Of a stretch of DNA of 50,184 nt, positions 4,649 through 24,753 are shown in pieces. Both the position numbers and the translations under genes were made by a program. This DNA is from Candidatus Bathyarchaeia archaeon (GTDB lineage Archaea; Thermoproteota; Bathyarchaeia; Bathyarchaeales; Bathycorpusculaceae): NCBI GenBank assembly GCA_049515895.1, contig JBEKTQ010000026.1, positions 1 through 50,184 on the forward strand, read 5' to 3'. The notes under the pieces were generated by a model. It worked only from the letters and a program-made list of their open reading frames with translations. It was not told the origin of the DNA and ran no database searches. Numbering within the stretch: position 1 is the stretch's first letter; each line of letters starts with the position of its first letter.

Positions 4649-4758
4649 CCATAGAGCAAGAGTTGCCATAAGGGCATACCTGCAAGAAAAAAAGTTTTCA
4701 GCTTAAAAACGTGCCTGAAGAGAACTAGACAAATAGGCAATTTTAATCTCTATTAGAT

Positions 4759-5240
4759 GCGCGCTGGCTTGTCCCTTTAATTGGTGTAAAGTGGTTAAAA
4801 GTCTTATTTTTTAGTTTGGGGACAGATTTGAGGCACGTAATCCTTCCCTGTTTCTTTGCAGTAGCCACCCTTCTCAAACATGCAAACGTACGTAAGCCGA
4901 CTGAACTGCAAGGTCACAAACGCTTCATACGGGTTTTCAAGTGCAGCCTACACCTGCTTAGAGGCTGCAGACGGAACGCGGTAGGTGAATTTAGGTCTTC
5001 CAAGAGTGTTTGAAGCCATCTTCTCCTTAACAAAGAGGCCTCAACCTGTTAACCTTTGAAGATGTCGTTGCAGAGTGTTATGGGTAAAGCCTACTTCGCC
5101 CAGAAGCTCAGAGAAGCCTCCGGGTTTCCCGTCTTTAAGCGCGGCCAAAATGCGTTCCTCAAAGAAGCCCATCACAGGCTTAAACAAGCAACAACGAACT
5201 TACAACCATTTTTAACCATTTATTTAACTCCCCTGCGCGC
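4759..5240. mobile_element. Non-autonomous element with GCGCGC-ended imperfect inverted repeats, carrying a wHTH pseudogene
   Basis: Left end GCGCGC...TGGTGTAAAGTGGTTAAAAGT; right end (reverse complement) GCGCGC...TGGTTAAAAATGGTTGTAAGT. Confidence 0.7.
4804..5172 (-). pseudogene. Winged-helix (ArsR-like) regulator with Cys-rich tail and two in-frame stops
   Basis: Hand translation: MGFFEERILAALKDGKPGGFSELLGEVGFTHNTLQRHLQRLTG*GLFVKEK...GRPKFTY...QV*AALE...CMFEKGGYCKE...ICPQTKK. TGA at 5041-5043, TAG at 4948-4950. Confidence 0.75.
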
Positions 5241-5284
5241 TTGCAACCTATAGAATTGTAATTTATTGTAATTTGTCGTTTAGT

Positions 5285-8200: not shown

Positions 8201-8560
8201 GGTTACATTCGAGATAACCGTATTCGTAGCTGTGCTTATCACTGAAACCGAACCACTACCAAAATTCGTGACATAGGCGTACAAACCGTCAGGCGTAACA
8301 GCCACACCAAATGGATTATTTAAACCGCTTATCCTCGACGTAACCGTGTTCGTAGCCGTGCTTATCACTGAAACAGTAGTACCGCCCTCATTTGCAACAT
8401 AAGCATAAGCACCGTTAGGTGTTATAGCCACACACTCAGGTTCACTTCCTACGGTAATCGTCGACGTAACCGTATTCGTACCTCGAACCGTGTTGGTTAC
8501 CGACAATACAATAATCACGGCGAATACCAAACCTAAGAGCTTCCAAACCTTAGCTTTCAT
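5285..8560 (-). CDS. Single-pass membrane protein: signal peptide, ~14 YVTN-type beta-propeller blades, Ig/PKD-like repeats, Pro-Thr linker, TM helix, C-terminal TIR domain
   Basis: ATG at 8560 gives a signal peptide (MKAKVWKLLGLVFAVIIVLSV); 14 TP[N/D]G repeats; TM segment FPFGYLFLFMIPVAIVVALIVY followed by KK; TIR motifs DVFISYS..D and S.QV.REVE.A. Confidence 0.9.
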   Translation of the reverse strand: MKAKVWKLLGLVFAVIIVLSVTNTVRGTNTVTSTITVGSEPECVAITPNGAYAYVANEGGTTVSVISTATNTVTSRISGLNNPFGVAVTPDGLYAYVTNFGSGSVSVISTATNTVISNVTVGAFPVGVAVTPNGLYAYVTNFGSGSVSVISTATNTVTATVTVGNTPVGVAITPNGAYAYVANAGGTTISVISTATNTVTSTITGLNNPYGVAFTPNGLYAYVTNDGDTTISVISTATNTILTNVTVGTYPGGVALTPNGLFTYVANYASSSVSVVSTTTNTVTATVSVGSKPSCVAVTPNGLYAYVTNYGSGTVSVVSTATNTVIATAPAGSSPWGVAVTPNGAYAYVVNEGGGSVSVVSTATNSVTATITVGNGPVGVAITPNGAYAYVTNWGDGTVSVISTATNMVTSTIPVGGNPEFVAVTPNGLYAYVTNAGGTTVSVISTATNSVTATITVGNGPVGVAITPNGAYVYVINRGDGTVSIISTATNTVTATLTGFSSPYGVAVTPNGLYAYITNQGSSVSVVSTATNTVTAAITVGNNPDGVAVTPNGLYAYVTNYGSGTVSVVSTATNTVNATVTVGNEPLGIAFTPNGLGQSQLFTATPSGGSGSYTGYQWYVGGAAQSGATASTFSYSPTSAGSYSITATVTDSLGLTSTQSIATTVTVNSALVVPTASASLATIDQGQTSTLSSTTVTTGTSPYTYQWLQKAPGAGSFSSISGATSSGYSFVTTGSTTAGSWSFELQVTDSASTPVVVTSTAISVMVNGAPTVSVSPGQSQLFTATPSGGSGSYTGYQWYVGGAAQSGATASTFSYSPASAGSYSITATVTDSFGTTSAQSTVTPIVTPTPTPIVTPTPTPIVTPTPTPIVTPTPTPIVTPTPKLNAKSNAGFPFGYLFLFMIPVAIVVALIVYKKFWNRPPKAPTPTQLRNALAQKGDASAIGNVAEKPQETPFDVFISYSNRDKNVADALCSTLESRKIPCWIAPRNIPAGADYPAALAHALNNSRILVLVFSTESNKSGQVMREVEKAVRKGIPIIPFRIENVEPTEGMEYLLSAKHWLDAMTPPVEKHFQELADTIQLLLTDKSDRLI
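5916..6035. repeat. 5 x 24-bp perfect tandem repeat encoding the Pro-Thr linker
   Basis: GGTGTTGGCGTAACTATTGGTGTT repeated five times. Confidence 0.95.
6111..6772. repeat. Identical 122-bp direct repeat (6111-6232 and 6651-6772) in the Ig-like domains
   Basis: Base-by-base identity read from the sequence; the copies are 540 bp apart. Confidence 0.9.
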
Positions 8561-9203
8561 AAACAATACCCAACCTTTACTTCGCGCGTGGAATAAACTG
8601 GGAACAGGAATAACACGAGTAAAGCGGAGACGAAAATTGCCTCTGTTTTCATCTTTCTCGCCAGAAGGTACACTATATGCAAAGCCTCTGCTTGCCTTTA
8701 GCTTTTTCCATTTCCAGTTTTTCAGCGTGCACCAAGTTTTTCTGAACTGCCAAAACGTCATCCTTACTAATTGCAAATTTTAAAGCCATTAACTATAGCG
8801 CGATGGTATGGGAAGTGTTTTACGTGAGAGGCGCTCACGCCATGTTAGCGCGCGCGCAAATCAAACTGCCAAAAACATATAAGTCATATTCCAAAAACGT
8901 AACATATCAAAACACTTTATGCCACCATTTCTTTTTCTTCAAAAAGCAGATTTAAAATTTATCATCAATTAAAACTTGGCTAAAATACTACGAGTGATAC
9001 AAAACGTTATGTTTTCTAATCTCTCCAGCAACAATCAGACTTTTTTATTTCAGTTTCTTGAAGTTCGCCTCACGGAGATTTAATTCTTGCTAACATGTAG
9101 ATATATATATAAAATAAGCCAGCGTTTTTTGTGTCAACAAACGATGTTTCTTCTTTTTTTTGTTTCCCATAATCTCTCTAAATTTGGTATTTCCATGTTT
9201 AGG

Positions 9204-9497
9204 CTATTTCTTACGCTATGCAAATTCAAGACTTATCTTAACGAAAACTTGCTAAATATTCTCTTTTAGTTCTTTCCTTAGTTTTTGGATAGCCCTCAAA
9301 GCACCTCTTTCACCTCACTATTTGCTCTTCTTTCTTTTTCTTCATTGAATCTTCGATTTTCTGTGTAGTTTCATTAAGGCATTTTTCACGATATTCTTCA
9401 CAAGTCATTCATTTATTCACCTCACTTTTTTGTCTTTTTACGGAATAATATCTCTGCTATGTTCAAGCTATTTCTACGCTATGCAGATTTAAGACTT
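9204..9497. repeat. Two copies of a 30-bp motif CTATTTCTACGCTATGCAGATTTAAGACTT (variant at 9204-9234, exact at 9468-9497)
   Basis: An identical third copy lies at 41334-41363. Confidence 0.85.
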
Positions 9498-9904
9498 ATC
9501 ATCTATGAAAAGCAACACCAAGAATAACATCCTCTCTAACCGTACCCTTTTCTCTTACTTGACATTATACTGCTAATCATGTTCTCTTTTAGGTATAGAT
9601 TACCGTACCCTTCATCAAAAAGAATCTTGCCTCTTCTCCTACTTGACTCCTGCCCTACGTCCGCGCGAGCAGAGCGAGCATCCCACCGCTACTCACCGTA
9701 ATATTTTTTTTTTGATTAAAACTTAATCCAACCAACCACAACTACTAACAAACTCAAACAAACCTACCTACACACACATACAACAGTTGATCAATTTATC
9801 CTATCTCAATTCTCTATTGACGGAGATAGACAAGGACAGAAAAAATCAGAGCTAAGGCTAGCCTAGATCGCAGACCCCAAAAAGAAAGCGCCCGCACACG
9901 GAGA

Positions 9905-10525
9905 TCAGCTGTACAATTTTCCGTTCAGCCATGTTAAAGGGCCAGTGTACGCTTGAGCTCCGACGTTGACGATGGTGCTGAAAATCGTCGAAGGAAGCGC
10001 TAGAACATAAAGCCCGTTGTCCGCCCCAGAAGTTACGGTATAGTTCACATCTACCTGATGAATGCTAATCAATGTTATGCTTGATATAGTAACCCTTAAT
10101 CCTGAGTCGGCGCCAAGAGTGCCATTCAACAGATTAACCTTAAGCGCGGGAACAGGGTCTGTGAAGAAAGACATTGTTAAATTGTTGGATGAGGTGTACG
10201 AGACCGTGATTTGACCCACGCTGTTAGGTAACAAGACAAATTCAATCGTTCCGGATGTCGGATTCACAACCGTCACAAACCCGCTTTCGCTAGGAAAAGA
10301 CACAGTTGCAAATATGCTGGGACCATTGGACGGACCAACTGTCCCTACAGGAGGTGTTTGGGTAGATGCCTGACCAACTGTTACTTCAGGAGATGTTTGC
10401 GTAGATGCCTGATGTATGTACCCAAGTCCGTAGTAAAGTGAAACCAACAGTAACGCAAAAAGAATCAATGCTATGTCAAATAGGACTACCCGTTTCTTCA
10501 TATCTCTTTGCATTTGAATGATCAC
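9905..10525 (-). CDS. Hypothetical membrane-anchored exported protein
   Basis: N-terminal TM helix, short QASTQT..V.TVG duplication, Ser/Thr/Val-rich beta-type body. Confidence 0.7.
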   Translation of the reverse strand: MIIQMQRDMKKRVVLFDIALILFALLLVSLYYGLGYIHQASTQTSPEVTVGQASTQTPPVGTVGPSNGPSIFATVSFPSESGFVTVVNPTSGTIEFVLLPNSVGQITVSYTSSNNLTMSFFTDPVPALKVNLLNGTLGADSGLRVTISSITLISIHQVDVNYTVTSGADNGLYVLALPSTIFSTIVNVGAQAYTGPLTWLNGKLYS

Positions 10526-10920
10526 TCAACGTTAGTAATAGACCCTGAAGTACTTTATACTATAGCATAGTACATCCTGTGCCAGAAATTGGAACACTTT
10601 TTAGTTTCATCACCTTTCAATTGGTTAGCTCAATTCATGAATGACACACGCGCATGAAAGCGCGCGCTCGGAACCACAATTTTTTTTGAATGTAACTGGG
10701 GACGGAATAATCCCTGCAGTTGCTGGAGGGGGATCCCAGCACCAATTTGCCATGAAAATCGTTGGCTTAACCCGAGAAATTCTCATGCCACTTCTATTGA
10801 AGCTTGCTTACCAGTAAAAGATGTTGAGAATGAATCGGACGTATCCCCTATCACAGCGTTGATTGAGAATCGTGAGCGAACATTCCAACTTAGCGTGTGC
10901 CAAGTGGGCGTCCTTAGGGA

Positions 10921-12870
10921 CTATTGACCGTTGTAGTATCTGATTAACGGTGGATGTAATGGGTCATTTGGATTCATCATTCTAACGAACGCATTAAGCT
11001 CAGTTGGAGGCTCTACATAATCTGTTTCAATTATAATGAATTGAGTATCTTGCAATGGACCTTCAGCAAGTCTATAGAGATATTGATAGAACGATTCAAA
11101 TATCTCTAGATTTACTCCCTTGCCTACATTTTTCATCGGCGAATCAATGATTAGGAAATTAGGAAGGGGCAAGTCATTCTCTGCAGCCACTTTATGGATA
11201 GCAAGCGCATAGCAAACAGTTAAGATGGTTTTTTTACCACCGCTGCCAGCATTAAAAAAATCCAAAACGTTTTCCTTCTTTCCATGCTCTAAAATATATG
11301 GAATCCAATTAGCACGGTCGATTTCAACAACGTCATCCTCATAAATCCCTGGCAACTTGATTGCAATAAGAGCTTCAAGATAGCTTCTAGCTATTTGCTT
11401 GACCAACTGTTCTGAGGTTTTTAGTGTTTTTTCTTCTTGGTCCACTTCAAGTTTCAGTCGCTCTTCTTCTGAGAAAAGTATTGAGAGATCATCCTCCATT
11501 TTGCTAACTTCTTTGGGTAGTTCAATAGTTTTTTTGAGATTTCTGATCCTTTCTTCTAGAGAGGCGACCTCATGTTCCTTCTCTCTTGTTTCAGCGACAA
11601 AGTTAGAATCGTAAGACCTAAGCGCATCTGCAAGTTTTTTGTCAGCTGCATTCTTTTTCTCTCTTAATTCCAAGTATGCCCTTTTTTGCTCTTGCTGAGC
11701 TTTTTTCTGACGTTCAATAGAGTCTTCAAGCTCAAAAATCCTCGAATCTAGATCAAGTTTCAAAGCGTCCTCTTTAACATCTTTACCTTCACTTTCGTTA
11801 GTCGCTTCCTTGCATAATGGGCAAACGCTTTGCCCAGATTGAGCCCTAGTTAAAACCTTGTTACCACAGGCAGGGCATACTTCAAAATGCACGTTTTCGA
11901 ATACGTTTTTTGCCGAAAGAGTACGGACTAACTTGAACTTAGACGCAATAAGCTCCGCCCTCAAGGATTCCTGTTCATTAATCCTTGTTCTGAGGTCAAT
12001 TAAATTTTGTTCGGTATCAGATAATTCCTTTTCTAATCCTCTGAGGAGTTGCCGCTGATCATCAACGAAATGAGTCTCCTTCGCATATCCCTGATGCATT
12101 TGTTGGACTTCCGCGACGGCACTCGATAATTGAAACTCAACTCCCTGTATCTCTTCAAGCAATTGATTCTCAGAGCTATAACCTAATCTTTCCAGAAACA
12201 ATTTGACATTCTCAATTTCGCTCGTTTTCTTTCCTTTTAATTGACGAACCACGTCCAATTGACCCTTGAGTGCTGAAAGCCTATCCGTATATGCTCCCGT
12301 GATGAAATCGAGTATGTAACGGCTATTCCGCAGTTTGTAATCGGTTTTTAGCCAGAAGAATGCTGAATCCATTACGTTTTGCTCTAAGTAGCAATACCAC
12401 ATGAAATTCCGAAAGCTCAGTCTCACTGTCTGCTCCTCGTTGGCAGCCTTGCTTTTTGGTATCCTCAGCGCCTCTTCTCCCGCAAGATAGAAGAGCAAAT
12501 CATTGAGATTTTTTATGTCGTTTTTCCATATAGGAACAGGTGATTCTCCTATCGGTGCAAGCACGCTCCCATATTGACCCTCTCTATTTGTCCAGCTAAC
12601 TTGCACTTGAGAACCATATGCTTGACGTTCAAAGATTGTTTCGTTCTCGCCAATTGTAGCTTTAAGCTCTACTGCAACCATTTCGCTTTTAATTGCGGGG
12701 GTTCTTTCAAGTTCACCACCCAAACAATAGTCAATCAAACGTGCAATCGTGGATTTACCTGACGATAACTTTCCATAGAATAGTGACAGTGTTGAAGAAA
12801 ACTCTATGGTCTCAACGGATTGCTTGCATGTCAATGTAAGAGTTTTAAAACGCACCTTGAACTTGATCAT
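10921..12870 (-). CDS. lmuB: SMC-like ABC ATPase of a Lamassu/ABC-three-component system (LmuB-like)
   Basis: Walker A GKLSSGKST, long coiled coil with central CPAC...CPLC, signature GSGGKK, Walker B LIIDSP; overlaps the upstream gene by 4 bp. Confidence 0.8.
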   Translation of the reverse strand: MIKFKVRFKTLTLTCKQSVETIEFSSTLSLFYGKLSSGKSTIARLIDYCLGGELERTPAIKSEMVAVELKATIGENETIFERQAYGSQVQVSWTNREGQYGSVLAPIGESPVPIWKNDIKNLNDLLFYLAGEEALRIPKSKAANEEQTVRLSFRNFMWYCYLEQNVMDSAFFWLKTDYKLRNSRYILDFITGAYTDRLSALKGQLDVVRQLKGKKTSEIENVKLFLERLGYSSENQLLEEIQGVEFQLSSAVAEVQQMHQGYAKETHFVDDQRQLLRGLEKELSDTEQNLIDLRTRINEQESLRAELIASKFKLVRTLSAKNVFENVHFEVCPACGNKVLTRAQSGQSVCPLCKEATNESEGKDVKEDALKLDLDSRIFELEDSIERQKKAQQEQKRAYLELREKKNAADKKLADALRSYDSNFVAETREKEHEVASLEERIRNLKKTIELPKEVSKMEDDLSILFSEEERLKLEVDQEEKTLKTSEQLVKQIARSYLEALIAIKLPGIYEDDVVEIDRANWIPYILEHGKKENVLDFFNAGSGGKKTILTVCYALAIHKVAAENDLPLPNFLIIDSPMKNVGKGVNLEIFESFYQYLYRLAEGPLQDTQFIIIETDYVEPPTELNAFVRMMNPNDPLHPPLIRYYNGQ

Positions 12871-13415
12871 ATCTTGATTTTCTCCCCGCTCTTTAGTGAG
12901 GTTATCTCTGGAAATGTTTCATAAATAAAAGATCGCAAGTTAGTGCCACTCTCATCAAAAAATCTTTTAAGTATATGGGCCCTGTTGACGGTGATTTCAA
13001 ATTCTTCAGAACGAGTTAGTTCATCAGCGACTTGAATGCCTTTGCAAGTCAGCCCTATATAGACGGTTCGTCCCTCTTTCCTAATTTCGCATAAACCCAT
13101 GCCTATTAGCAAGTTTAGAAAAGTATCATAGCGAGGGTCCCAAGGTCCATACTTGTAGCGTATCATTGCAGATTCAACGCTTCTTCGCTCATATTCCAAA
13201 ATTGCAAGATTATCAATTGGTTGATTTCTTTTCATTAGGGCTTGTTCTAAGTAAACAGGATAGCGAAGTAGAAAATCAAGCTTAACGAGTTTTGTTTTTC
13301 CTGCAACTTCGTCGGTTCCATTCTTGCCTGCAAAGGCCCTAAGAAGAACGAGAAGTCTTGCAGTATGTAACTTAGGGTCATCTTCAAGTTTCGCTAATTC
13401 CTTAAAAAGGCTCAT
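12867..13415 (-). CDS. lmuC: Middle component of the ABC-three-component system (LmuC-like)
   Basis: KLVKLDFLLRYP and MIRYKYGPWDPRY motifs; sits between the effector and the ATPase with overlapping ends. Confidence 0.7.
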   Translation of the reverse strand: MSLFKELAKLEDDPKLHTARLLVLLRAFAGKNGTDEVAGKTKLVKLDFLLRYPVYLEQALMKRNQPIDNLAILEYERRSVESAMIRYKYGPWDPRYDTFLNLLIGMGLCEIRKEGRTVYIGLTCKGIQVADELTRSEEFEITVNRAHILKRFFDESGTNLRSFIYETFPEITSLKSGEKIKI

Positions 13416-14658
13416 TCTCTTCCTCCTTTGTTAGATCAAACCGTTCGCTCCACCAAATTTTGCAATCTTCAGTTAAAATGCCAGCAATCCCTAGCAGTTG
13501 TGGATAACTCATTTCATGGTATTGATTCTTGACTTGAGAGTCAAAGGCAATATGCAATTTATCACGCGCTAGCCCTAGCATTCTCTCTCCGTATAGTTCG
13601 TTAGGCTTTTTAGCAGAGTCATGGGCCTCTTGGCATTCATTCCAAACCAAAACCGAAAGATTGTCTGCATGCTTTTCCGCCTCAATTCTTCCACGCTTAT
13701 GAAGCCATTCAATGAATAGATACTGAGCGGACCAATTGTTATTTTTCATAAGGTCAATGTTGGAGTTGTCGATACCGCCTCGTATCATTTTTCGCTCCAA
13801 TATCTTAGTTGCGTTTTGTGTGAGCAGTATGGGCTTTGGCTCAATACTTTTTAAAAGTATTACAGAATCGGCACACTGACTTAAGCGATTCTCAATCATG
13901 GCAGGAGTAATTCTCTTGTTTTCAATTATCGCTTGATTAACAGTAGCTTGCGGATTTTGAAGCATACCGTAGTAGGAAGGCTTGGATAAATCGGTTGAAC
14001 GGCAGGCTGCGGCAGATGTAAGCCCGATTAACTCTTCAGCCATGTTAGACAAAACATACGCAGGCTGAGTTTGACTGTTTGTTATTTTTGATAAGTCATC
14101 AGCAAGGATAGCTTTGTAGTGGTCAAGGTCTGCCCAATCTACTAACCTCACTTTATTGAGCGTTGACAAAGCTTGCTTCTTACTACAATTTGCCAGCCCA
14201 GTCAAAGTTTCGATTTTGCCGGAAAACATATGACCCTTTTTGTCGATTCGAACTTTGCCTCTCTGCAAAAGATCAAGAGCATGACTCAAGTCTGAGCTAT
14301 CCCTGCTTGACGCAAAACCACAATTTGTTGCAAGATGGAAGCTCCCAAAGGATTTAGGAAAGTCACTATCAAGCCGGATGAATTTCTTCAGACTCTGAAG
14401 TATCTCATCGTCGCCGAATCTGAACGGGCCCAGAGACTTTTGTTTAGTTTTGACTTGGACCCCGATAAATTTGCCACTCTTGCATTTTACCAAAACGTCC
14501 TCATACTGCTCACAATAAATGCATTCATAAGGAGAGCTTTCTCCAAGAAGCTGGAGCGCAACATAGGCTGCATATGCCGCTTGATATCGAAAACGGTTCT
14601 GAGTATTATCCCCTGTGTCACTTGTATCTGTCGACTGGTCAGGGGCTTTATTTGACAA
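13402..14658 (-). CDS. lmuA: Cap4/DUF4297-like PD-(D/E)xK nuclease effector with ABC-3C C-terminal domain (LmuA-like)
   Basis: G....RFRYQ, E.YEDV, QVKT nuclease motifs; C-terminal LGIAGILTEDCKIWWS. Confidence 0.8.
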   Translation of the reverse strand: MSNKAPDQSTDTSDTGDNTQNRFRYQAAYAAYVALQLLGESSPYECIYCEQYEDVLVKCKSGKFIGVQVKTKQKSLGPFRFGDDEILQSLKKFIRLDSDFPKSFGSFHLATNCGFASSRDSSDLSHALDLLQRGKVRIDKKGHMFSGKIETLTGLANCSKKQALSTLNKVRLVDWADLDHYKAILADDLSKITNSQTQPAYVLSNMAEELIGLTSAAACRSTDLSKPSYYGMLQNPQATVNQAIIENKRITPAMIENRLSQCADSVILLKSIEPKPILLTQNATKILERKMIRGGIDNSNIDLMKNNNWSAQYLFIEWLHKRGRIEAEKHADNLSVLVWNECQEAHDSAKKPNELYGERMLGLARDKLHIAFDSQVKNQYHEMSYPQLLGIAGILTEDCKIWWSERFDLTKEEENEPF

Positions 14659-17153: not shown

Positions 17154-17367
17154 ATGCGGAAAAGGTGATGAAGCGTTTAAAGGCAGCAGAAAAAAGTTAG
17201 CCCCCGCAGAGAAAAAATTTGTTATCATGGACTTTGACGGCTCCTACTTTGGCGATTGCGGATCAAGCATTTCTCAAGAACAACTTGCCGGCTGGTTGGA
17301 AAAACAAGAGCCGACTGCCGAGATAACAATCATAAAGTACTTGACCGAGGTGCTGTGTGTTGACTGA
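17150..17367 (+). pseudogene. Small viral-type protein, apparently frameshifted at an A6 run
   Basis: TTG at 17150 gives MNAEKVMKRLKAAEKS*; one extra A at 17190-17195 continues into KLAPAEKKFVIMDFDG... Confidence 0.5.
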
Positions 17368-17926
17368 AAACAAAACAACTATAAAAGTCCCTGATGCGTA
17401 CCTGCCTCTCCTAGAAGACTTAAGGCTCCTGAAAAGCGACGATAACAACCCAAACAAAATGACGCTAAAACAGAAAGGACAGGTCTGGAATAGCCTGCAG
17501 AAATACGGGTGGACTTACCCGATCATAACTAACAAGGACGGCATTTTCGCAGATGGGGAACAAAGAGCAAGCGTCTGCATTGAACATGGCGAGTTTTTCG
17601 CTCCCGTTTTGCGTTTGCCAGTTTCTGACGTTGACCGACGGATACTAAGGCAAATCCTCAATAAACTCAAAGGGACGCACAGCAAGGAACTTGACAGCGC
17701 CGAATACCTTCGCATCATAGAAGCCGGGGAAAAAGACTGCCTAAAAGCCCTGCTCGATTCCATTGGTGAAAAGCTGCCGCAGGAAAACGACCAGGTCTCC
17801 GAAGGTCCAACTACTATACCTGACAGCTATGAGCTACTCATAGAATGTAAGGATGAGACTGAACAAAAGCGTTTCTTTGATACGCTAAAGGCTGAAGGCT
17901 ACCATGTCAGGGTGCTGAATCTATAG
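17357..17926 (+). CDS. ParB/Srx-like N-terminal domain protein
   Basis: NPNKM...SLQKYGW..PII.....ADGEQR pattern. Confidence 0.75.
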   Translation: MLTENKTTIKVPDAYLPLLEDLRLLKSDDNNPNKMTLKQKGQVWNSLQKYGWTYPIITNKDGIFADGEQRASVCIEHGEFFAPVLRLPVSDVDRRILRQILNKLKGTHSKELDSAEYLRIIEAGEKDCLKALLDSIGEKLPQENDQVSEGPTTIPDSYELLIECKDETEQKRFFDTLKAEGYHVRVLNL

Positions 17927-17938
17927 GAGGCGTGCCTT

Positions 17939-18622
17939 ATGAATTTTGAACTTTCATATGATTGGAGTGAGCCGAAAAGTTTCCGAGCTCAAAGCGTTGT
18001 TGGCAGCTTCACGCTGAGCGACGCTAAATTGCAAAAGTGCTTCAAAGGCTCCTTGCCAATAGAAGATTTTGATTGGCAAATTGGTGTAATAGTCGGTCGT
18101 AGCGGCTCAGGCAAATCAAGCATAGCAAAACACGTTTTCCCAGACTGCTACGTTACAGGATTCCAGTACAGCCACCAATGTGTCCTCGACGACTTCCCAG
18201 AAAACTTGCCGACCAGCGAAATCACGCGCCTGCTCTGCAGTGCCGGCTTTGCGTCGCCTCCAGACTGGCTCAAAGCCTACAATTGCCTAAGCCAAGGAGA
18301 AAAGATGCGTGTTGACATCGCCAGAGCGTTATGCCTTCCTCAGCAGTTGATTGTTTTCGACGAGTTTACATCAGTTGTCGATCGTGAGGTTGCAAAGATC
18401 GCTTCTTTTGCAATCAGCAAGGCAATTAGACGGCTGGACGGCAAGAAGTTCATTGCAGTTACCTGTCACTATGATGTTGTAGACTGGCTGGATCCAGATT
18501 GGGTATTCTGTACTGATACGATGGAGTTTGACCGAAAAAAAGAGTGCGGCCGCCCGTTGAACTCCAAGTTTATCGGTGCGGCAGGTCAATGTGGCAAATG
18601 TTTCGGCAATATCATTATCTGA
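17939..18622 (+). CDS. ABC-type ATPase (N-terminal half of an ABC-GNAT fusion)
   Basis: GRSGSGKSS, LSQGEKMR, VFDEFTSVVDR, VTCHYD motifs. Confidence 0.88.
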   Translation: MNFELSYDWSEPKSFRAQSVVGSFTLSDAKLQKCFKGSLPIEDFDWQIGVIVGRSGSGKSSIAKHVFPDCYVTGFQYSHQCVLDDFPENLPTSEITRLLCSAGFASPPDWLKAYNCLSQGEKMRVDIARALCLPQQLIVFDEFTSVVDREVAKIASFAISKAIRRLDGKKFIAVTCHYDVVDWLDPDWVFCTDTMEFDRKKECGRPLNSKFIGAAGQCGKCFGNIII

Positions 18623-19050
18623 ACGGCAAACTCGGCGCAGGCGTCAGATGCTACACAGCCCTCTACCATGAAAAGCCTGTAGCCTTCATCGCAGTCGCGC
18701 ACATCCATATGAGAGCCAACTTGTTCCGTGTTAGCCGCCTAGTGGTTTTGCCAGATTATCAGGGCATAGGCATAGGTAAACGGCTGCTGAATTTTATTGC
18801 TGAACTCTACACGTCACAGATCACTTTGCCGTTCTATCTGGTAACAAGCAATCCACAGTTCATCCATGGAAATATGAATAACTGGAAAGTGAAACGTGTT
18901 GGACATAGCAACACAGGGAAAAAGGCAAACACGCGAATAAATCTGGGTCTTTCCAAGTCTGCTAGTCGGCAGCGCCTAACGGTTTCACTTCAATACATTC
19001 CAATAGCTGAATCAGCAAAACAAAGCGAACTTTTATGCAAGAAACAATAG
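18544..19050 (+). CDS. GNAT acetyltransferase (probably reached by -1 frameshift from the ABC ORF)
   Basis: W.MFRQYHYL; RLVVLPDYQGIGIG acetyl-CoA binding motif; overlaps the ABC ORF in the -1 frame. Confidence 0.85.
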   Translation: MRPPVELQVYRCGRSMWQMFRQYHYLNGKLGAGVRCYTALYHEKPVAFIAVAHIHMRANLFRVSRLVVLPDYQGIGIGKRLLNFIAELYTSQITLPFYLVTSNPQFIHGNMNNWKVKRVGHSNTGKKANTRINLGLSKSASRQRLTVSLQYIPIAESAKQSELLCKKQ

Positions 19051-20300
19051 TCATGCGTTACAAGCCTCATTCGGGGCAGCTTCTATTCCATAGGTGCCCA
19101 GCTAGGTTTAGAGTACTCAATTGCGGGCGACGCTGGGGCAAAACCTTAGCAGGAGCCAATGAGCTCATACGGCAGTTGCTTAAACACGGCCCAAATATAG
19201 TGGCGTTCGCTGTAGCGCCAACCTACTGGCATACAAAGCGCCAGTGGACCGAATTCTTCAACAACTGCCCACTCGAGTTAATAGCGCGAATTCACCGGGC
19301 AAAGAGGCAAGTTATTCTTGAGGGCAACCGCACCATCTGGTTCAAAAGTGCAGATAACCCCGACTCGCTGAGAAGCCAAGGTCTAAAAGTTCTATGGGTT
19401 GACGAGGGTGCCCAAATCGCTGAAGAAGCTTGGACTCTTGCCCTAAGACCAGCGTTGATGGATCAAAAAGGCATAGCCTTTTTCACCGGCACGCCAAGAG
19501 GGCATAACTGGTATTTTCAATTGTGGACCCGAGGACAGGATCCGTCGCAAACCGATTACAAGAGCTGGAGTTTCCCAAGCAGCAGCAACCCGTATTTGGA
19601 TCCTACAGAGATTGCTTCGTTTGCCCGTGACATGCCTGAGCTTGCTTATCGCCAAGAGGTTATGGCTGAGTTTCTTATAGACATTGGCAGCGTCTTCCGT
19701 GAAGTAGACCGCATAGTCAAAGGCACCCTTCAACCGCCCCAACCTGGCAAGCAGTATGTTATGGGCGTTGACTTGGCAAAACTCTGCGACTTCACGGTCC
19801 TAATCATCTTGGATATGGAGGGGCACCTGGTTGCTTTCGACCGCTTCAGCCAGTTAGACTGGGTTTTTCAGCGCAAACGCATAGTTCAACTATCCCAACA
19901 ATACAAAGATGCCCGCTTGCAAATTGACAGTACAGGAGTCGGCGACCCAGTCTGCGATGAACTCCAACGAGAAAACGTCAGAGTGGACCGCTACAAATTC
20001 ACCAATGCAACCAAGAAGGATCTGATTGAAAACCTGAGCATGATGATTGAGAACCAACAGATCACTATACCACAGATCCCCGAGTTAATCAACGAGCTCA
20101 AGCTATATGGCTACAAGACCTCGCCAAGCGGCAACGTGCAGTACGGAGCACCCGAAGGCTACCACGACGACTGTGTAATCGCTTTAGCATTAGCAGCATG
20201 GCAACTAAAACGCACTCCACCACCAGGCATAGGAGTCTTATTTGGGCCACCCCCGAAGCCAATCAATCCTTATAACTCGTTTGACAACCCACTGTTTTGA
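19035..20300 (+). CDS. Phage terminase large subunit
   Basis: GRRWGKT Walker A, WVDE Walker B, GTPRG, GVDLA, IDSTGVG and HDDCV nuclease motifs. Confidence 0.92.
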   Translation: MQETIVMRYKPHSGQLLFHRCPARFRVLNCGRRWGKTLAGANELIRQLLKHGPNIVAFAVAPTYWHTKRQWTEFFNNCPLELIARIHRAKRQVILEGNRTIWFKSADNPDSLRSQGLKVLWVDEGAQIAEEAWTLALRPALMDQKGIAFFTGTPRGHNWYFQLWTRGQDPSQTDYKSWSFPSSSNPYLDPTEIASFARDMPELAYRQEVMAEFLIDIGSVFREVDRIVKGTLQPPQPGKQYVMGVDLAKLCDFTVLIILDMEGHLVAFDRFSQLDWVFQRKRIVQLSQQYKDARLQIDSTGVGDPVCDELQRENVRVDRYKFTNATKKDLIENLSMMIENQQITIPQIPELINELKLYGYKTSPSGNVQYGAPEGYHDDCVIALALAAWQLKRTPPPGIGVLFGPPPKPINPYNSFDNPLF

Positions 20301-20459: not shown

Positions 20460-21341
20460 ATGAAGATTATCTCTGGTCCAGTGTCTAAGGAACTTGCTGA
20501 AAAGGTTTCAGCCAAAACTGGCTTTGCCAATATTCCTGTCGTGTTCAAGATTTTCCCTGATGGCGAATCATACATTCGTTTGGTGGATAGTGTGCAGGGT
20601 GAGGATGTGGCTGTTGTGCAGACGACTTGTCCGCCTGGGCAGGACGGACGGCTTTTTCAGCTAGCGTTTATGGCAGATGCGGCACGTCGGGGCGGCGCCA
20701 AAAAAGTCACGGCGGTCGTTCCCTACTTGGCGTATGCGCGGCAGGACAAGATGTTTCTGGCAGGCGAAGGCATAAGCGTGGAAACCGTTGCCCGGATGCT
20801 TGGGGCAGCTGGAGTCGACGAGCTCCTGACGGTTAACATTCACTCTGAACCCGCGCTAGCTCAGTTTCCGTTTCCGGCCAAAACAGTCAGCGCCATCCCG
20901 CTGATAGCAGAGTACTTTGTGCAGAAGGGCTGCAAAGGCGCATTTGCCCTCTCGCCTGACAAGGGCGCTATGTACATTGCTCAGCAGGCGCAGGCGGTTC
21001 TGGGCGGCGACTGCGGCCACCTAAACAAGACCCGAGACCGATACACAGGGCAAACCCTGCAAACAGCAGAGGGCTTAAACATAAAGGATCAAACCGTCAT
21101 CATATTTGACGACATCATCAGCACAGGCGGCACCATCGTTGGCGCAGCGAAGATCCTACGTGAACAAGGCGCCAAACACGTCTTCTGCGCATGCGTGCAC
21201 GGCTTACTAATCGGCGACGCAGAGAAACGGATTCTTGACGCAGGCGTCGAGGAAATCGTGGGAACGGACAGTGTGCCGGGAAACGTCAGCAAAGTTTCGT
21301 TGGCGCCGCTTCTAAGCAGAGAACTTAAGGCGCAAAACTAG
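20460..21341 (+). CDS. prs: Ribose-phosphate pyrophosphokinase
   Basis: FPDGE, PYLAYARQDK, DDIISTGGT motifs. Confidence 0.96.
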   Translation: MKIISGPVSKELAEKVSAKTGFANIPVVFKIFPDGESYIRLVDSVQGEDVAVVQTTCPPGQDGRLFQLAFMADAARRGGAKKVTAVVPYLAYARQDKMFLAGEGISVETVARMLGAAGVDELLTVNIHSEPALAQFPFPAKTVSAIPLIAEYFVQKGCKGAFALSPDKGAMYIAQQAQAVLGGDCGHLNKTRDRYTGQTLQTAEGLNIKDQTVIIFDDIISTGGTIVGAAKILREQGAKHVFCACVHGLLIGDAEKRILDAGVEEIVGTDSVPGNVSKVSLAPLLSRELKAQN

Positions 21342-22414
21342 TGGCAAAACTCTTCTTTCTCCTCTCAGGCGAAAGCCAAACTCTGCCCCCCGCGGAGGTC
21401 AAGGCAATCCTTGAGTCGGAAGGTTACAGTCAATCGAACCCAGAGGTCTTGGACCAGACCCTGCGGCTGGAAGCAGACCCCGGCTGCGTTAAGGCGGTAC
21501 ATGTACGAGCTGCTTTCACTAGACTTTGTGCCTTAGAGATTTTCGTTTCAGACGCTACCGAAGCAGCCGCAATCCATGCCGCAGGCGACTCCGACTTTGA
21601 GGCTGTACTAAAACCAGGCGAAAGCTTCTCGGTTCGAGTCAACCGAATAAAAAACTACGCTGACCAAGCCATAGACACTATGAGGTTAGAGGGCAAACTT
21701 GGCAAAGCAATACTTGCCCGGGCGCCCAAAGCCAAAGTAAATCTGAAATGCCCAGACAAAACCTTCATCGGAGTAGTCACCAACGAAAAACTCGTCTTCG
21801 GATTGAAGCTTACTGAAATCCAAACCAAAACCTTCAGCGAACGCAGACCCCGCAAGAAACCTTTTTTCCATCCGTCTGCTATGCCGTCGAAGCTTGCCCG
21901 CTGCATGGTGAACCTGGCACATGGGGAAGCTGAAGGCTTGATGCTTGACCCCTTCTGCGGGACGGGCACGTCGCTCATAGAAGCCGTGTACATCGGCTGC
22001 AGGGCTTTGGGTGCGGATGCTCAGAGACGAATGATCTTGGGTTGCAAAAGGAACCTGGCCCACTTCGACATTACTGCTGAAGGCCTCGCGTTGGCGGATG
22101 CTCGTCACCTGCCCTTCTTTAGGGTTGACTGCGTAGTTACTGACCCGCCTTATGGGCGGTCGGCAAGCACTTTGAAATCGACGACTAAGCAGCTAGTACA
22201 AGAGGTTCTGGTTGCCTCACACGGTTTGCTTGCGGCGGGACAAAGAATCTGCATAGCTCTCCCCATAAAGGTGAACGAGCAGGGGCAAGAGGAACACATG
22301 TCAAGAGACTTATCGGATTTCATCGAGAGACTCGGGTTCGAAACGATTGAATCCCACACATTGTATGTTCATCGAACCTTAACTAGAGAAATAATGGTTT
22401 ACCAAAAAACATAA
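21341..22414 (+). CDS. THUMP-domain tRNA (guanine-10) methyltransferase, Trm11/TrmG10-like
   Basis: RRPRKKPFFHP, DPFCGTG and TDPPYG motifs. Confidence 0.88.
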   Translation: MAKLFFLLSGESQTLPPAEVKAILESEGYSQSNPEVLDQTLRLEADPGCVKAVHVRAAFTRLCALEIFVSDATEAAAIHAAGDSDFEAVLKPGESFSVRVNRIKNYADQAIDTMRLEGKLGKAILARAPKAKVNLKCPDKTFIGVVTNEKLVFGLKLTEIQTKTFSERRPRKKPFFHPSAMPSKLARCMVNLAHGEAEGLMLDPFCGTGTSLIEAVYIGCRALGADAQRRMILGCKRNLAHFDITAEGLALADARHLPFFRVDCVVTDPPYGRSASTLKSTTKQLVQEVLVASHGLLAAGQRICIALPIKVNEQGQEEHMSRDLSDFIERLGFETIESHTLYVHRTLTREIMVYQKT

Positions 22415-22504
22415 CCGCCTTTCCTTGGTTCGAATCCCAGCGAACACGCCACCCTACGCATGATCTATTTTTGAGTCCCACAGAAAACAAAAGTGGAGAG
22501 CCAT

Positions 22505-22990
22505 TTAGTCTTGATGTTGATGTTGGCAAGCCAACCGTTCCGATTCTACCTTACTTATGTAGATATGCCCAATGGCAAGAACAACGGCAAATGCACCCAA
22601 AAACCATGAACTAAGAAAAACCGAAGCTGCCAGAAAATATGCAATCGGACTAACAACCATGGGCAGAGGCAAACCCATCAGAGGCGAATATAGAAGCACG
22701 TACTGTCTGCCTTTCAAGAAGAACCTCAACCATGCCACGTAGTAAATCAACAAGAATACAATCATGACTGACAGACTGATTTTCTGCAGCACAGTTTGAA
22801 CACTAGTTTGGTAGATGAAAGGAATAGCAAACACTCCAACTTGTCCAATTCGCTCAAGATATTCCATAAGTTTCATGACCGAACTTTTGGAACTCCCCTG
22901 CGATTTTGGCGATGATCTAGCGGGTAAAAACTTGAAGAAAATGAGGTTTGGCACCAAAACCAGGACAGATACCAGCCAACCAAGATACAT
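22505..22990 (-). CDS. Hypothetical multi-pass membrane protein
   Basis: Four to five hydrophobic segments. Confidence 0.75.
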   Translation of the reverse strand: MYLGWLVSVLVLVPNLIFFKFLPARSSPKSQGSSKSSVMKLMEYLERIGQVGVFAIPFIYQTSVQTVLQKISLSVMIVFLLIYYVAWLRFFLKGRQYVLLYSPLMGLPLPMVVSPIAYFLAASVFLSSWFLGAFAVVLAIGHIYISKVESERLACQHQHQD

Positions 22991-23208
22991 GAATGTCCAT
23001 TGTCAATTTTTCTTTTTAAGACTTTATGCCGACGAATGAAAAAAGAGGGGTAGGCGGGAGATATCTCCACTTGTGCCTGGGTTCAAATCCCAGCGGCCCA
23101 CTATTCGTTTGTAGTTAGGAAAAGGATTCGCTTAAATAATTAAGCGAGTCCCAGCGGGCCCGCCATCCCACAAACGAATTTATCCGTTTTCTCGCTATGA
23201 CATAAGCT

Positions 23209-23637
23209 TTAGTTTAATTTAGTTATATAATCTAAAAACTCTCTAGGTGAAAGTACCCTTGTTTTCCTGAACGTGCCAAGCTTAAGAAGATGCTTATCTC
23301 CAGAAACGACAAAAACTGCGCCAGCCGCCTCTGCACACTCCAATATTTTGTTGTCTTCAACATCTTCCTCTATAATGTTTAGTTTTACCTTAGGCTTAAC
23401 CAGTATCGATTTTTCCTTGATGGCTTCTAAGATTTCTTTTTCATTTATGTTTGCTTTTCTCAGAATTTTGGCGATTTTTGGGTATAGTAGAACTTTTGAT
23501 ATTTCCAGTATTATTTCTTCGCTGATGTAAACGGTTAAGTTTTTGTTTGCTCGCGAGAATTCGTCAGCAAGAATCTTTTGCAAAAAGATAGAAACCCAAA
23601 CATTTGTGTCAAGAACTACTTTGACTTTCGTGCCCAC
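23209..23637 (-). CDS. PIN-domain toxin (PIN_3 type)
   Basis: VVLDTNV, D.EDNKILECA, VSGDKHLL motifs. Confidence 0.9.
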   Translation of the reverse strand: MGTKVKVVLDTNVWVSIFLQKILADEFSRANKNLTVYISEEIILEISKVLLYPKIAKILRKANINEKEILEAIKEKSILVKPKVKLNIIEEDVEDNKILECAEAAGAVFVVSGDKHLLKLGTFRKTRVLSPREFLDYITKLN

Positions 23638-23879
23638 TCGACTGCCTCAGCCACAATTTTATCAATGTCGATTGATTCTTCTCGGGTTGCCTTGTCAATC
23701 TTATTTGCAATATCCTCGATAGAGACGTTCTTGGTCTTTCTAAGCAGTATGTCCCCATCGCGGGTAAGCAACAGAAGCTTCTCGCCGCCGTTTACGCCCA
23801 GTTTCTTGCGAATCTCTCGGGGAATAACTATTTGCCCTTTAGACGAAACCTTGATGACATCTTCAATTTGTTCTGTCAT
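23616..23879 (-). CDS. AbrB/MazE-family antitoxin
   Basis: KVSSKGQIVIPREIRKKLG; overlaps the PIN gene. Confidence 0.92.
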   Translation of the reverse strand: MTEQIEDVIKVSSKGQIVIPREIRKKLGVNGGEKLLLLTRDGDILLRKTKNVSIEDIANKIDKATREESIDIDKIVAEAVEWARKSK

Positions 23880-24029
23880 AAATTTCTAATACATTTTACA
23901 AGTAAATAAATTTTTACCTTCTGACAACAACATTAAGTCATTCGAAGATGCCGGTTCAAATCCCAGCGGGCCCGCCACTGGCGTTAAGTATTGTCTTTCG
24001 ACATTGGCTTGTCTGGGAAAATGCTTATC

Positions 24030-24054: not shown

Positions 24055-24285
24055 ATGGGCACAAAGACAATTTCAATAAAGGACGAAGCGTATCAAGCGT
24101 TGCTTCGAGAAAAAATAGACAAAGAAAGTTTCACGGAAACCATTTTGCGTTTAACAAAGTCAGGCAGAATCTCCGATTGCTTCGGAGCATGGAAAATGAC
24201 CGACCGAGAAGAAGAGACCTTCAAAGTCGAACTCGCTACGGGATGGCACCGAGTTCAAGAGAGAATTTCACATGAAATGCCTTGA
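24055..24285 (+). CDS. vapB: VapB-family antitoxin (DUF217-like)
   Basis: MGTKTISIKDEAY..L...K...ESFTETILRL; start reassigned to ATG 24055. Confidence 0.85.
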   Translation: MGTKTISIKDEAYQALLREKIDKESFTETILRLTKSGRISDCFGAWKMTDREEETFKVELATGWHRVQERISHEMP

Positions 24286-24664
24286 AACGGACTTTCTTGT
24301 CGCTACTTTGCGAGGCAAGAAAGAAGCCGAGAGAATAGTTAAAGAGCTCGACGAGGAAGGCAAAGGCGCAACCACAGCCATTAATTCCTTCGAACTTTTC
24401 TTCGGCGCTAACAGATCAGAAAGGAAAAATGAAAACGTAAAGCAGACTTCAAAACTACTAGAAAGACTCATAGTATTTCCTTTGGACTTCGCATCCTCAC
24501 GGAAAGCAGCCGACATTTCTGCGAAGTTGGCGGCAGAAGGCGAAAAAATCGATTTTAGAGACGCCATGATAGCGGCAATAGCCATAGAGAACGGTTTGAC
24601 GCTAGTCAGTCGCAACGAGGCTCACTTTAAGAGAGTAAAAGGCCTAAAATTGGAAGTTTGGTGA
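24272..24664 (+). CDS. vapC: VapC PIN-domain toxin
   Basis: CLETDFL, FEL..G, DAMIAAIA, SRN..HF. The first acidic residue is E rather than the usual D. Confidence 0.88.
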   Translation: MKCLETDFLVATLRGKKEAERIVKELDEEGKGATTAINSFELFFGANRSERKNENVKQTSKLLERLIVFPLDFASSRKAADISAKLAAEGEKIDFRDAMIAAIAIENGLTLVSRNEAHFKRVKGLKLEVW

Positions 24665-24753
24665 CATGCAGGGGAGCGCATTCAAATTCGTTTCCAAGAC
24701 ACGTGTAAAACTTTGACGAGAGAAATTGCAATGCTCGAGAAGGGCCAAACCTG

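Follow-up and report, generated by a model that had tools for sequence, protein, structure and literature searches.

The 50,184-nucleotide stretch of DNA analysed here (hereafter the window) is the entire contig C26 in the genome of a peat archaeon (Candidatus Bathyarchaeia archaeon), which comprises 53 contigs and 3.18 Mb, is labelled G000 and is 100% complete by marker genes. Our subject is an islet of low GC content (35-46%, against 51-59% in prs and trm11) that occupies the ~2.3-kb interval between the tRNA methyltransferase gene trm11 and the RNase Z gene rnz. The islet contains three small gene units, two of which are toxin-antitoxin pairs, together with four pieces that resemble tRNA 3' ends and are named here c1 to c4. 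A first-pass annotation, made from the sequence alone, had described the region as an integron-like accretion site that uses tRNA-derived recombination sites and is served in trans. The gene identities that it proposed were confirmed by Pfam and NCBIfam, and the locus is laid out as follows.

21341..22414, plus strand: trm11-like tRNA methyltransferase gene with THUMP and UPF0020 domains (Pfam, NCBIfam TIGR01177)
22375..22396, plus strand: left-hand member of the direct repeat of trm11 3' ends on either side of the islet (repeat D12, pairwise alignment)
22427..22451, plus strand: c1, a decayed Arg-type tRNA 3' piece, GGTTCGAATCCCAGCGAACACGCCA, 12 nucleotides (nt) past the trm11 stop (sequence, repeat search, genus comparison)
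22505..22990, minus strand: membrane-protein open reading frame (ORF) of 161 amino acids (aa) without a family match (Pfam, NCBIfam)
23054..23077, plus strand: arm GCGGGAGATATCTCCACTTGTGCC, directly 5' of c2 (alignments, genome comparison)
23076..23101, plus strand: c2, a tRNA-Pro(GGG)-type 3' piece, CCTGGGTTCAAATCCCAGCGGCCCAC, with one base missing (genome matches, alignments)
23102..23123, plus strand: 22-nt spacer TATTCGTTTGTAGTTAGGAAAA, conserved behind Pro pieces in the relatives G003, G004 and G044 (alignment)
23124..23151, no strand assigned: perfect palindrome GGATTCGCTTAAATAATTAAGCGAGTCC with a 12-bp stem and a 4-nt loop (sequence, fold, genome and genus searches)
23149..23165, plus strand: c3, an exact 17-nt tRNA-Arg(CCG/GCG) 3' core with CCA, fused to the palindrome (genome matches)
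23209..23637, minus strand: PIN_3 toxin gene, 142 aa (Pfam PF13470, NCBIfam TIGR00305)
23616..23879, minus strand: AbrB/MazE-type antitoxin gene, 87 aa (Pfam PF04014, NCBIfam)
23953..23977, plus strand: c4, an exact 25-nt tRNA-Arg(CCG) 3' end with CCA (genome matches)
24055..24285, plus strand: vapB antitoxin gene (Pfam PF02697; the listed ORF begins at 24004, and the ATG at 24055 fits the Pfam match)
24272..24664, plus strand: vapC PIN toxin gene, 130 aa (Pfam PF01850, NCBIfam VapC)
24705..24752, plus strand: displaced ancestral 3' end of trm11, preserved as a pseudo-copy that reads TLTREIAMLEKGQT* in frame and stops 1 nt short of the rnz start codon
24754..25677, plus strand: rnz (RNase Z), the right-hand core neighbour (Pfam, NCBIfam TIGR02651)

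The membrane-protein gene, the AbrB-PIN pair and vapBC lie on the minus, minus and plus strands, respectively, and upstream of each unit there is an intergenic stretch able to hold its own promoter. In both pairs the small antitoxin gene overlaps the PIN toxin gene, an arrangement that suggests type II toxin-antitoxin systems (VapBC and AbrB-PIN). As had been described, the units between the tRNA-like pieces are small (only 0.65-0.8 kb) and without a recombinase in the Pfam scan. No integrase domain of the PF00589 type was found among the 32 window ORFs spanning 759-33236; the earlier statement that an integrase is missing holds for contig C26 and does not extend to the genome, which has 13 PF00589 matches on other contigs, several of them beside tRNA genes.

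The four tRNA-like pieces share one orientation, as the first-pass annotation had noticed, and fall in the families D1, D3 and D5 of a repeat search of the window, but they are not copies of one sequence. The 25-mer it had quoted as the repeat, searched with up to 3 mismatches, has a single window match, namely c4 (23953-23977; 0 expected from 100 shuffles). Piece c1 has 4 mismatches to the Arg 25-mer and no exact parent, its nearest matches among 101 genomes of the genus being Arg-type ends with 3 mismatches. Piece c2 matches a tRNA-Pro(GGG) gene on contig C14 over 24/24 nt, compared with 21/21 nt for two tRNA-Arg genes. Piece c3 consists of the T-stem 3' strand, the acceptor strand and CCA (17 nt in all), and together with c4 it forms an exact 17-nt direct repeat that brackets the AbrB-PIN pair. 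This 17-mer has four exact copies in the genome: c3, c4, the end of the tRNA-Arg(CCG) gene (C2:20339-20417), and a site 52 nt behind the tRNA-Arg(GCG) gene (C1:125666-125743), whose own end has the same core without CCA. No intact tRNA was detected within the window by ARAGORN, and no RNA family by Rfam at gathering thresholds. The parent tRNA is therefore absent from the locus, as had been claimed, but not from the genome, where tRNA-Arg(CCG), tRNA-Arg(GCG) and tRNA-Pro(GGG) were found on other contigs. Likewise, an origin of the pieces as attachment (att) sequences derived from tRNA-Arg can be retained for part of the array, whereas c2 fits tRNA-Pro(GGG) and brings the number of tRNA types to at least two. 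A split or intron-bearing tRNA was rejected as the source, since complete tRNA-Arg genes precede the module formed by palindrome and core.

The junction of trm11 and rnz is a recurrent insertion spot in the genus. We compared 20 loci from 19 genomes of the same genus, in which Trm11 is 63-77% identical to that of the window. At 12 of the 20 loci the two genes abut (tblastn ends 9-13 nt apart, the stop being immediately followed by the rnz start), and the other eight carry inserts with unrelated cargo, from 0.33 to more than 6.1 kb long. At five of the eight insert-bearing loci, an ancestral-type trm11 end survives as a pseudo-copy of 18-54 codons directly before rnz. The remnant before rnz in the window is 79% identical to the ancestral-type end over positions 24705-24742 (30/38); it and the live end at 22375-22396 are the two copies, now diverged, of a direct repeat. 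The last ~60 codons of the live gene are of a 'replacement' type common to the insert-bearing relatives, and in insert-bearing genomes Trm11 is ~11 residues longer at the replaced C-terminal part. We take the whole trm11-rnz interval to be an insertion into the 3' end of trm11.

The cargo at this spot differs in nearly every species with an insert (loci L020-L029 of G019, G020, G013, G011, G010, G023 and G015) and includes PQQ/beta-propeller surface proteins, a histidine kinase with a polyprenyl synthase, and a DDE transposase with a small ORF pair. None of the 13 ORFs picked from the 19 listed for the eight loci has an integrase domain, no homologue of the window's five cassette proteins was found in the trm11-rnz interval of the relatives at 1e-5, and no tRNA-like piece was seen at the insert borders in any relative examined. 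The first-pass annotation had expected differences in gene content to break exactly at the tRNA repeats; across the 20 loci they break at the trm11 3'-end duplication instead, and with Trm11 at most 77% identical these relatives are too distant to reveal the gain or loss of a single cassette. The broader notion of an accretion spot is supported.

Within the islet, the stretch that leads from c2 through the palindrome to c3 (the composite) has counterparts at other loci. Window positions 23054-23165 are 89% identical over 113 nt to a stretch in G003, a genome in which trm11 and rnz abut, and such a value is far above the expected retention of non-coding DNA between these species. In G044 the composite lies behind an intact tRNA-Pro(GGG) gene and a 1.25-kb unit (cupin and methyltransferase), and in G016 behind a 476-aa ORF with weak matches to Phage_integrase and archaeal integrases and a 15-nt Pro end. 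Because of the placement of the composite in G003, G044 and G016, we read c2 as a displaced tRNA-Pro end, and the sequence behind it as the native downstream flank of that gene in the genus. In G000 itself, the tRNA-Pro(GGG) gene on C14 has right behind it a 432-aa ORF of the same weak integrase type, one of the 13 PF00589 matches, and the flank seen in the composite is absent there; tyrosine recombinases of 432-476 aa form a group that occurs beside tRNA-Pro and tRNA-Gly. We interpret C14:67897-68036 (minus strand) as a gene for tRNA-Pro(GGG) that is interrupted by an intron in the D region; ARAGORN missed this gene despite an intron search, and called the intron-less G044 orthologue tRNA-Pro(ggg). 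The 24-nt arm before c2 fits an element-side arm that is shared among elements, since similar stretches precede orphan Ala pieces (on C23) and, on C8, a Cys piece.

The relation to the tRNA-Pro(GGG) locus can be explained in another way, namely by the transfer of a ready-made block into the trm11 hotspot, so that the array would record events made elsewhere. The block would combine a segment of an integrated element with the right junction of that element and with the native flank that holds the palindrome and Arg core, and it would have moved by aberrant excision or by recombination between att-like sites of the two loci. The positions of the composite in G044 and G016, its close counterpart in G003 and the missing flank on C14 all agree with such a transfer, and integrase-driven rearrangement between archaeal att-like sites is the subject of PMC5495485, to go by the accessible part of that article. 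We nevertheless regard this explanation as quite improbable: it accounts neither for c1 and c4 nor for the exact c3/c4 repeat around one unit, and in an assembly of 53 contigs the element on C14 cannot be traced to its far end.

The interval between c2 and c3 had been described as a 41-bp spacer; it measures 47 nt (23102-23148) and is not inert, since it holds the palindrome, whose last 3 nt overlap c3. A search with up to 2 mismatches places this palindrome at about eight to ten sites in G000. Of the 61 genus genomes, 23 have it, usually more than once, and 38 do not; the reversed pattern used as control gave 0 matches. In a sample of 24 loci with 25 sites (one locus being from G000 itself), an Arg-type core (CA-N-CGG-R-CCCG) stands directly behind the palindrome at no fewer than 15 sites, and at most of the remaining sites either the core is degenerate or a tRNA 3' end precedes the palindrome by 5-46 nt. 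Among one-genome-per-species contigs, the exact pattern combining palindrome and core gave 34 matches, 33 of them in metagenome-assembled genome records of Bathyarchaeota/Bathyarchaeia and one in a record titled Nitrososphaerales. The search of IMG/VR with a single exact IUPAC pattern of palindrome plus core, which variants escape, gave 0 matches.

At 10 loci of nine relatives, two palindromes 1.6-7.5 kb apart flank a block of cargo. An intact tRNA-Arg gene (CCG, GCG, TCG or TCT) lies 5-46 nt before the left palindrome at six of these ten loci, and the core that follows the right palindrome equals the local tRNA-Arg core at three of the six and differs from it by two bases at a fourth. The bounded cargo is diverse and includes histidine kinases, PQQ propellers, NosD, an ABC transporter, phosphofructokinase, an FMN reductase with HxlR, molybdopterin enzymes with MobB and a PKD protein; no integrase or transposase domain was found in 40 ORFs picked by hand from the 78 listed (Pfam, E up to 0.001). 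Within a pair, the left palindrome is unlike the right one in one arm and at the centre. The difference of the centres argues against strand exchange inside the palindrome, and recombination of a dif/lox-like type within it is not favoured for this reason.

In G000, contigs C12 and C32 agree over ~70 nt to the left of the palindrome, through the palindrome and to the end of the core; they diverge immediately after the core, where C32 carries a non-coding repeat of ~370 nt. This repeat occurs in six copies (C20:41695-42110, C13:11769, C32:21940-22354, C2:122757-123124, C22:21100 and C17:59359) that are 92-96% identical and have no ORF of 80 aa or more. Each copy begins right behind an Arg- or Lys-type core, four adjoin a palindrome, and two end at another tRNA piece; the repeat looks like a recently spread non-autonomous element. 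Neither the repeat nor any of 11 palindrome loci has a match in Rfam.

Several further observations concern the surroundings of the palindrome. At C1:125666-125811 (L013), 27 nt separate an intact tRNA-Arg(GCG) gene from the palindrome, which is followed by a second Arg core with CCA. In G016, tRNA-Arg(GCG) has a similar spacer of 27 nt behind it, at a locus where two palindromes flank cargo. In the window, a 10-bp inverted repeat at 23103-23112 and 23170-23179 (ATTCGTTTGT / ACAAACGAAT) encloses the palindrome and c3; its right arm was not seen in four aligned relatives. In the literature searched, as far as its text was accessible, no description of an archaeal 28-nt palindrome fused to a tRNA core was found, and the word 'hairpin' occurs 0 times in the available text of PMC8371274.

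The strong conservation of the 28-nt palindrome across species whose proteins are 65-77% identical, its frequent position 5-54 nt after a tRNA 3' end and the stability of its fold (z = -3.7) might suggest that palindrome and tRNA-Arg 3' strand act together as a functional RNA or regulatory element, such as a tRNA-like 3' module or a processing or termination signal behind tRNA genes, and that the repeats are retained for this function. We consider this very improbable. Beside the lack of an Rfam match, changes in the stem are one-sided and not compensatory, the palindrome is found at both ends of cargo blocks and at sites without a tRNA, and its absence from more than half of the genus genomes searched would be odd for a housekeeping RNA.

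A more serious alternative, albeit in our judgement a rather unlikely one, is an active cassette platform served in trans, in which the palindrome and the Arg core form a docking (att) site, small circular units lacking a recombinase are inserted beside it and taken out again by an enzyme whose gene lies elsewhere, and the AbrB-PIN unit between c3 and c4 is one such cassette. Its logic would resemble that of integron cassettes, of Xer-dependent elements or of cis-mobilizable elements (CIMEs). This model draws on the multi-copy palindrome with its empty reversed control and frequently fused Arg core, on the paired palindromes with tRNA-Arg adjoining the left one, on the diverse cargo without integrase or transposase domains, on the ~370-nt copies starting exactly after cores and the divergence of C12 and C32 behind the core, and on the exact c3/c4 repeat. 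The absence of an AbrB-PIN pair from its usual place in G000 (see below) can be added. Since palindrome-bounded cassettes without a recombinase occur genus-wide, the possibility of service in trans gains some weight. Against the platform, no recombinase is linked to the palindrome, no free element with the exact palindrome-core pattern was found in IMG/VR, the central bases differ within palindrome pairs, the islet of the window has a single palindrome, and the contigs of four sequencing runs, which are poor at showing rare forms, contain no empty-site or circle junction. Moreover, integrase loss after integration is common among elements, according to the accessible text of PMC8371274. In a wider form that we hold to be unlikely, palindrome and Arg core would be the recombination or docking site of recombinase-less cassettes across the genus; a trans-acting enzyme would insert these at genes for tRNA-Arg, at near-cognate tRNA ends and at the module's own copies, with AbrB-PIN as a recently captured chromosomal pair.

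The units of the window were also traced in other genomes and samples. AbrB-PIN orthologues (54-71% identical) are present in ~35 of the 101 genus genomes, and the 11 inspected loci adjoin a membrane-transporter or an aminoacyl-tRNA synthetase gene, which is a conserved chromosomal context. The region upstream of AbrB-PIN is conserved with the window until ~20 nt before c4. In G000, the usual place beside the synthetase gene lacks the pair and has tRNA-Cys and a Cys piece instead. Orthologues of vapBC (55-77% identical) occur in 17 of 100 other genus genomes, and none of the 13 inspected loci has the palindrome. In two other peat metagenomes the membrane-protein gene is covered 26-47x with ~7% differences, compared with 0-3x for the remainder of the islet. 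A 3,028-nt contig of another peat metagenome contains the membrane gene (~93% identical), the arm and the core; past the core, 20 nt match the end of c4 and are followed by ~2.6 kb unlike the window. The membrane gene, the arm and the core are hence found as a unit in a second context, where the core is of Arg type.

Contigs of four public sequencing runs were set against the window, and in runs X3-X5 parts of the window without cover were not counted as evidence. Loose ends of contigs cluster at 23054, 23096-23099, 23124 and 23164-23165, the edges of the arm, c2, the palindrome and c3, a pattern that mainly restates the repeat nature of these four features. No excised, circular or empty-site junction for the strain of the window was found in the contigs of the four runs, which drop rare forms. 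In one run, possibly the source of the assembly, the bin bearing the module has a depth of 341 next to ~45 beside it, and contigs break there, as would be expected if our contig had been mis-joined across the multi-copy palindrome module. We find such an artefact hard to credit. The gene order prs-trm11 ... rnz-AP endonuclease-CxxC-methyltransferase matches relatives on both sides, the live trm11 at the left end has its counterpart in the trm11 remnant before rnz, and the repeat is only ~110 nt long. In the same run, overlapping pieces with an even depth of ~45 tile the whole interval, and a second run has exact-match pieces of the same strain in every islet unit, with gaps between them.

Orphan tRNA pieces are not confined to the window. 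A strict census, based on 20-mers of 35 tRNA 3' ends with up to 2 mismatches, counts 14 of them in G000, and a loose scan finds more. At C23:11311-32156 (L092), an intact tRNA-Ala(TGC) gene is followed in the same orientation by Ala pieces 0.8, 2.3, 8.5 and 11.7 kb on and by a fifth further away. The ORFs of this array include two small ORFs and a PIN gene in the first 0.8-kb unit, a GNAT protein with DUF6855, regulators and a PQQ protein, and no recombinase domain was found in 16 tested of the 26 listed. Judging from the C23 array, rows of small recombinase-less units between tRNA pieces are a habit of this genome, and the window array is the variant without a tRNA at its head.

Other classes of mobile element were considered for the palindrome and rejected. 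A Y1 (HUH) transposase, as in hairpin transposons of the IS200/IS605 type, can be dismissed, with 0 matches to PF01797 in G000, and so can a serine recombinase, for which the genome has only a sub-threshold match. The idea of a casposon arose from an 11-14 nt repeat and terminal palindromes; casposons have a Cas1-type integrase within or linked to them and terminal inverted repeats, and generate target duplications of 14-15 bp. G000 does encode a solo Cas1 of 394 aa (C34:4766-5950, L091) without adjoining cas genes, but its contig lacks the palindrome, and Cas1 homologues in relatives are not near palindromes. Full or near-full Cas1 homologues occur in six of the 61 genus genomes; all six have the palindrome but are kin, and the 17 other palindrome-bearing genomes have no such homologue. 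Many genus genomes hold isolated fragments of the C-terminal third of the solo Cas1, which may be decayed casposon-like elements.

On balance, we lean towards the view that the tRNA pieces are att-site scars left by serial site-specific integration and decay in a foreign islet, in which toxin-antitoxin pairs survive. The events and their order are read from the sequence relations, the layouts and the comparisons with relatives described above. A foreign islet would have been inserted into trm11 at its 3' end along with a substitute for that end, leaving the displaced one as the 45-nt pseudo-copy that abuts rnz. Pieces c1 to c4 would be core scars of tRNA-targeting, site-specific integrative elements of at least two kinds. 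The oldest of them would be c1, a decayed Arg-type core. Piece c2 and its 24-nt upstream arm would mark the right end of the element that carried the membrane-protein gene, and the spacer, the palindrome and c3 would form a module that elsewhere lies just downstream of tRNA-Pro(GGG) or a Pro piece. A single integration at this palindrome-core module would yield the c3/c4 repeat around AbrB-PIN and would be the youngest event. The local recombinase would have been lost by decay, and the toxin-antitoxin pairs kept as loss-resistant genes. The att pieces of tRNA type may have reached this site, which lies outside any tRNA gene, as passengers of an element or of a fragment of the tRNA-Pro locus.

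Several observations weigh against this view. No intact tRNA is present at either end of the array, where one is classically expected, and c1, the leftmost piece, stands only 12 nt from the trm11 stop. The last unit, vapBC, is not followed by a tRNA piece, and the Pfam scan revealed no integrase fragment in the islet. Neither a tRNA piece nor the palindrome accompanies AbrB-PIN orthologues at any of the 11 inspected loci, and a tRNA-like piece is present at only one of the 13 vapBC loci, ~100 nt upstream of vapB, so that these units are not seen travelling with att pieces elsewhere. The exactness of the c3/c4 repeat beside a decayed c1 could mean that sites have been kept in use. Finally, no enzyme could be named for the insertion at the 3' end of trm11.

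Serial integration and decay at this array would be a known kind of process, the tandem accretion of elements at tRNA, tmRNA and similar genes. Tandem integration, integrase loss and scattered partial tRNAs are described in the accessible parts of bioRxiv 10.1101/2020.12.28.424599, PMC8371274, PMC5704250 and PMC3146451. In the scheme outlined in the available text of PMC5704250, new elements enter at an att site of an element already resident at a tRNA or tmRNA gene, and elements decay to att-flanked CIMEs. The window shares with such arrays the same-orientation target 3' ends between units, the loss of recombination genes and the retention of att sites. The AbrB-PIN unit fits the CIME pattern in which attL and attR are kept and recombination and transfer genes are lost, as it is enclosed by the c3/c4 repeat and has only two genes between. 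The window differs from those arrays in that its array lacks the target gene at its head, sits within an insertion into a protein gene, combines two or more tRNA types and has units of 0.65-0.8 kb. Compared with a genomic island at a tRNA gene, displaced same-orientation tRNA 3' fragments are present at the unit borders (c1-c4), whereas the regenerated intact tRNA and the integrase are absent from the islet. Prochlorococcus islands built by Tycheposons likewise have scattered remnants and partial tRNAs with adaptive cargo (bioRxiv 10.1101/2020.12.28.424599, accessible part); however, they are bacterial, adjoin a full-length tRNA and contain elements found via their integrases, and a palindrome next to the core is not mentioned in that part. 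For archaea, the available text of PMC8371274 describes tyrosine-recombinase elements whose targets lie in the 3' part of tRNA genes, with tandem integration at a single locus and, in some cases, loss of the integrase gene after integration; among the described cases found in accessible texts, none has a conserved 28-nt palindrome fused to the core.

The resemblance to integrons, on which the first-pass annotation had relied, is limited to the small recombinase-less units and to a palindromic element at one unit border. Not one of the integron-defining features tested (an integrase, a palindromic site per cassette, co-oriented cassettes) was found: no IntI-type integrase lies beside the array (none of the 13 PF00589 matches is on C26), the islet has a single palindrome in place of an attC-like site for each cassette, the other borders are plain tRNA pieces, and the units lie on both strands. 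In addition, the upstream region of AbrB-PIN is conserved with its orthologues, and the repeat of the window is tRNA-derived. We therefore reject an integron.

The insertion into trm11 has a parallel in Escherichia coli, where phage 21 and e14 insert into the 3' end of the protein gene icd and bring a replacement end. In both cases the live gene has an altered functional 3' end and the displaced end is a pseudo-copy at the far side of the insert. The trm11 site differs in that its inserts, as far as their ORFs were tested, are without an integrase, and in that the cargo varies by species.

Two other regions of the window lie upstream of the islet. Positions 1466-14658 form a run resembling a defence island, with several family-less ORFs in between (Pfam); it includes a 1060-aa protein combining RelA/SpoT, SLOG, RyR and a KaiC-type ATPase (1466-4648), a 1163-aa beta-propeller/PKD protein with a terminal TIR domain (5285-8776, minus strand) and a protein with a Cap4-type nuclease domain (13402-14658, minus strand). 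Directly upstream of prs, positions 17357-20300 hold a phage-like remnant that starts with a ParB-like ORF. It continues with a phrog_11143 homologue split over the overlapping ORFs 17939-18622 and 18544-19050, which is possibly frameshifted, and ends with a complete large terminase (19035-20300); there is no capsid or integrase gene beside them.

If the reading that we favour is true, the islet exemplifies the build-up of small clusters of toxin-antitoxin and accessory genes in peat archaea that have not been cultured. What is unusual here is the combination of a missing head tRNA, a location at the 3' end of a protein gene, mixed tRNA types, and a conserved palindrome-core module with recombinase-less cargo. 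The more useful result lies outside the array: in many species, a conserved palindrome with a tRNA-Arg core borders varied cargo that lacks a recombinase, comprising kinases, transporters, phosphofructokinase, redox enzymes and surface proteins. If this cargo is moved in trans, it would represent a new route of gene exchange in an abundant uncultured group of archaea, and would offer a defined DNA site as bait for the enzyme.

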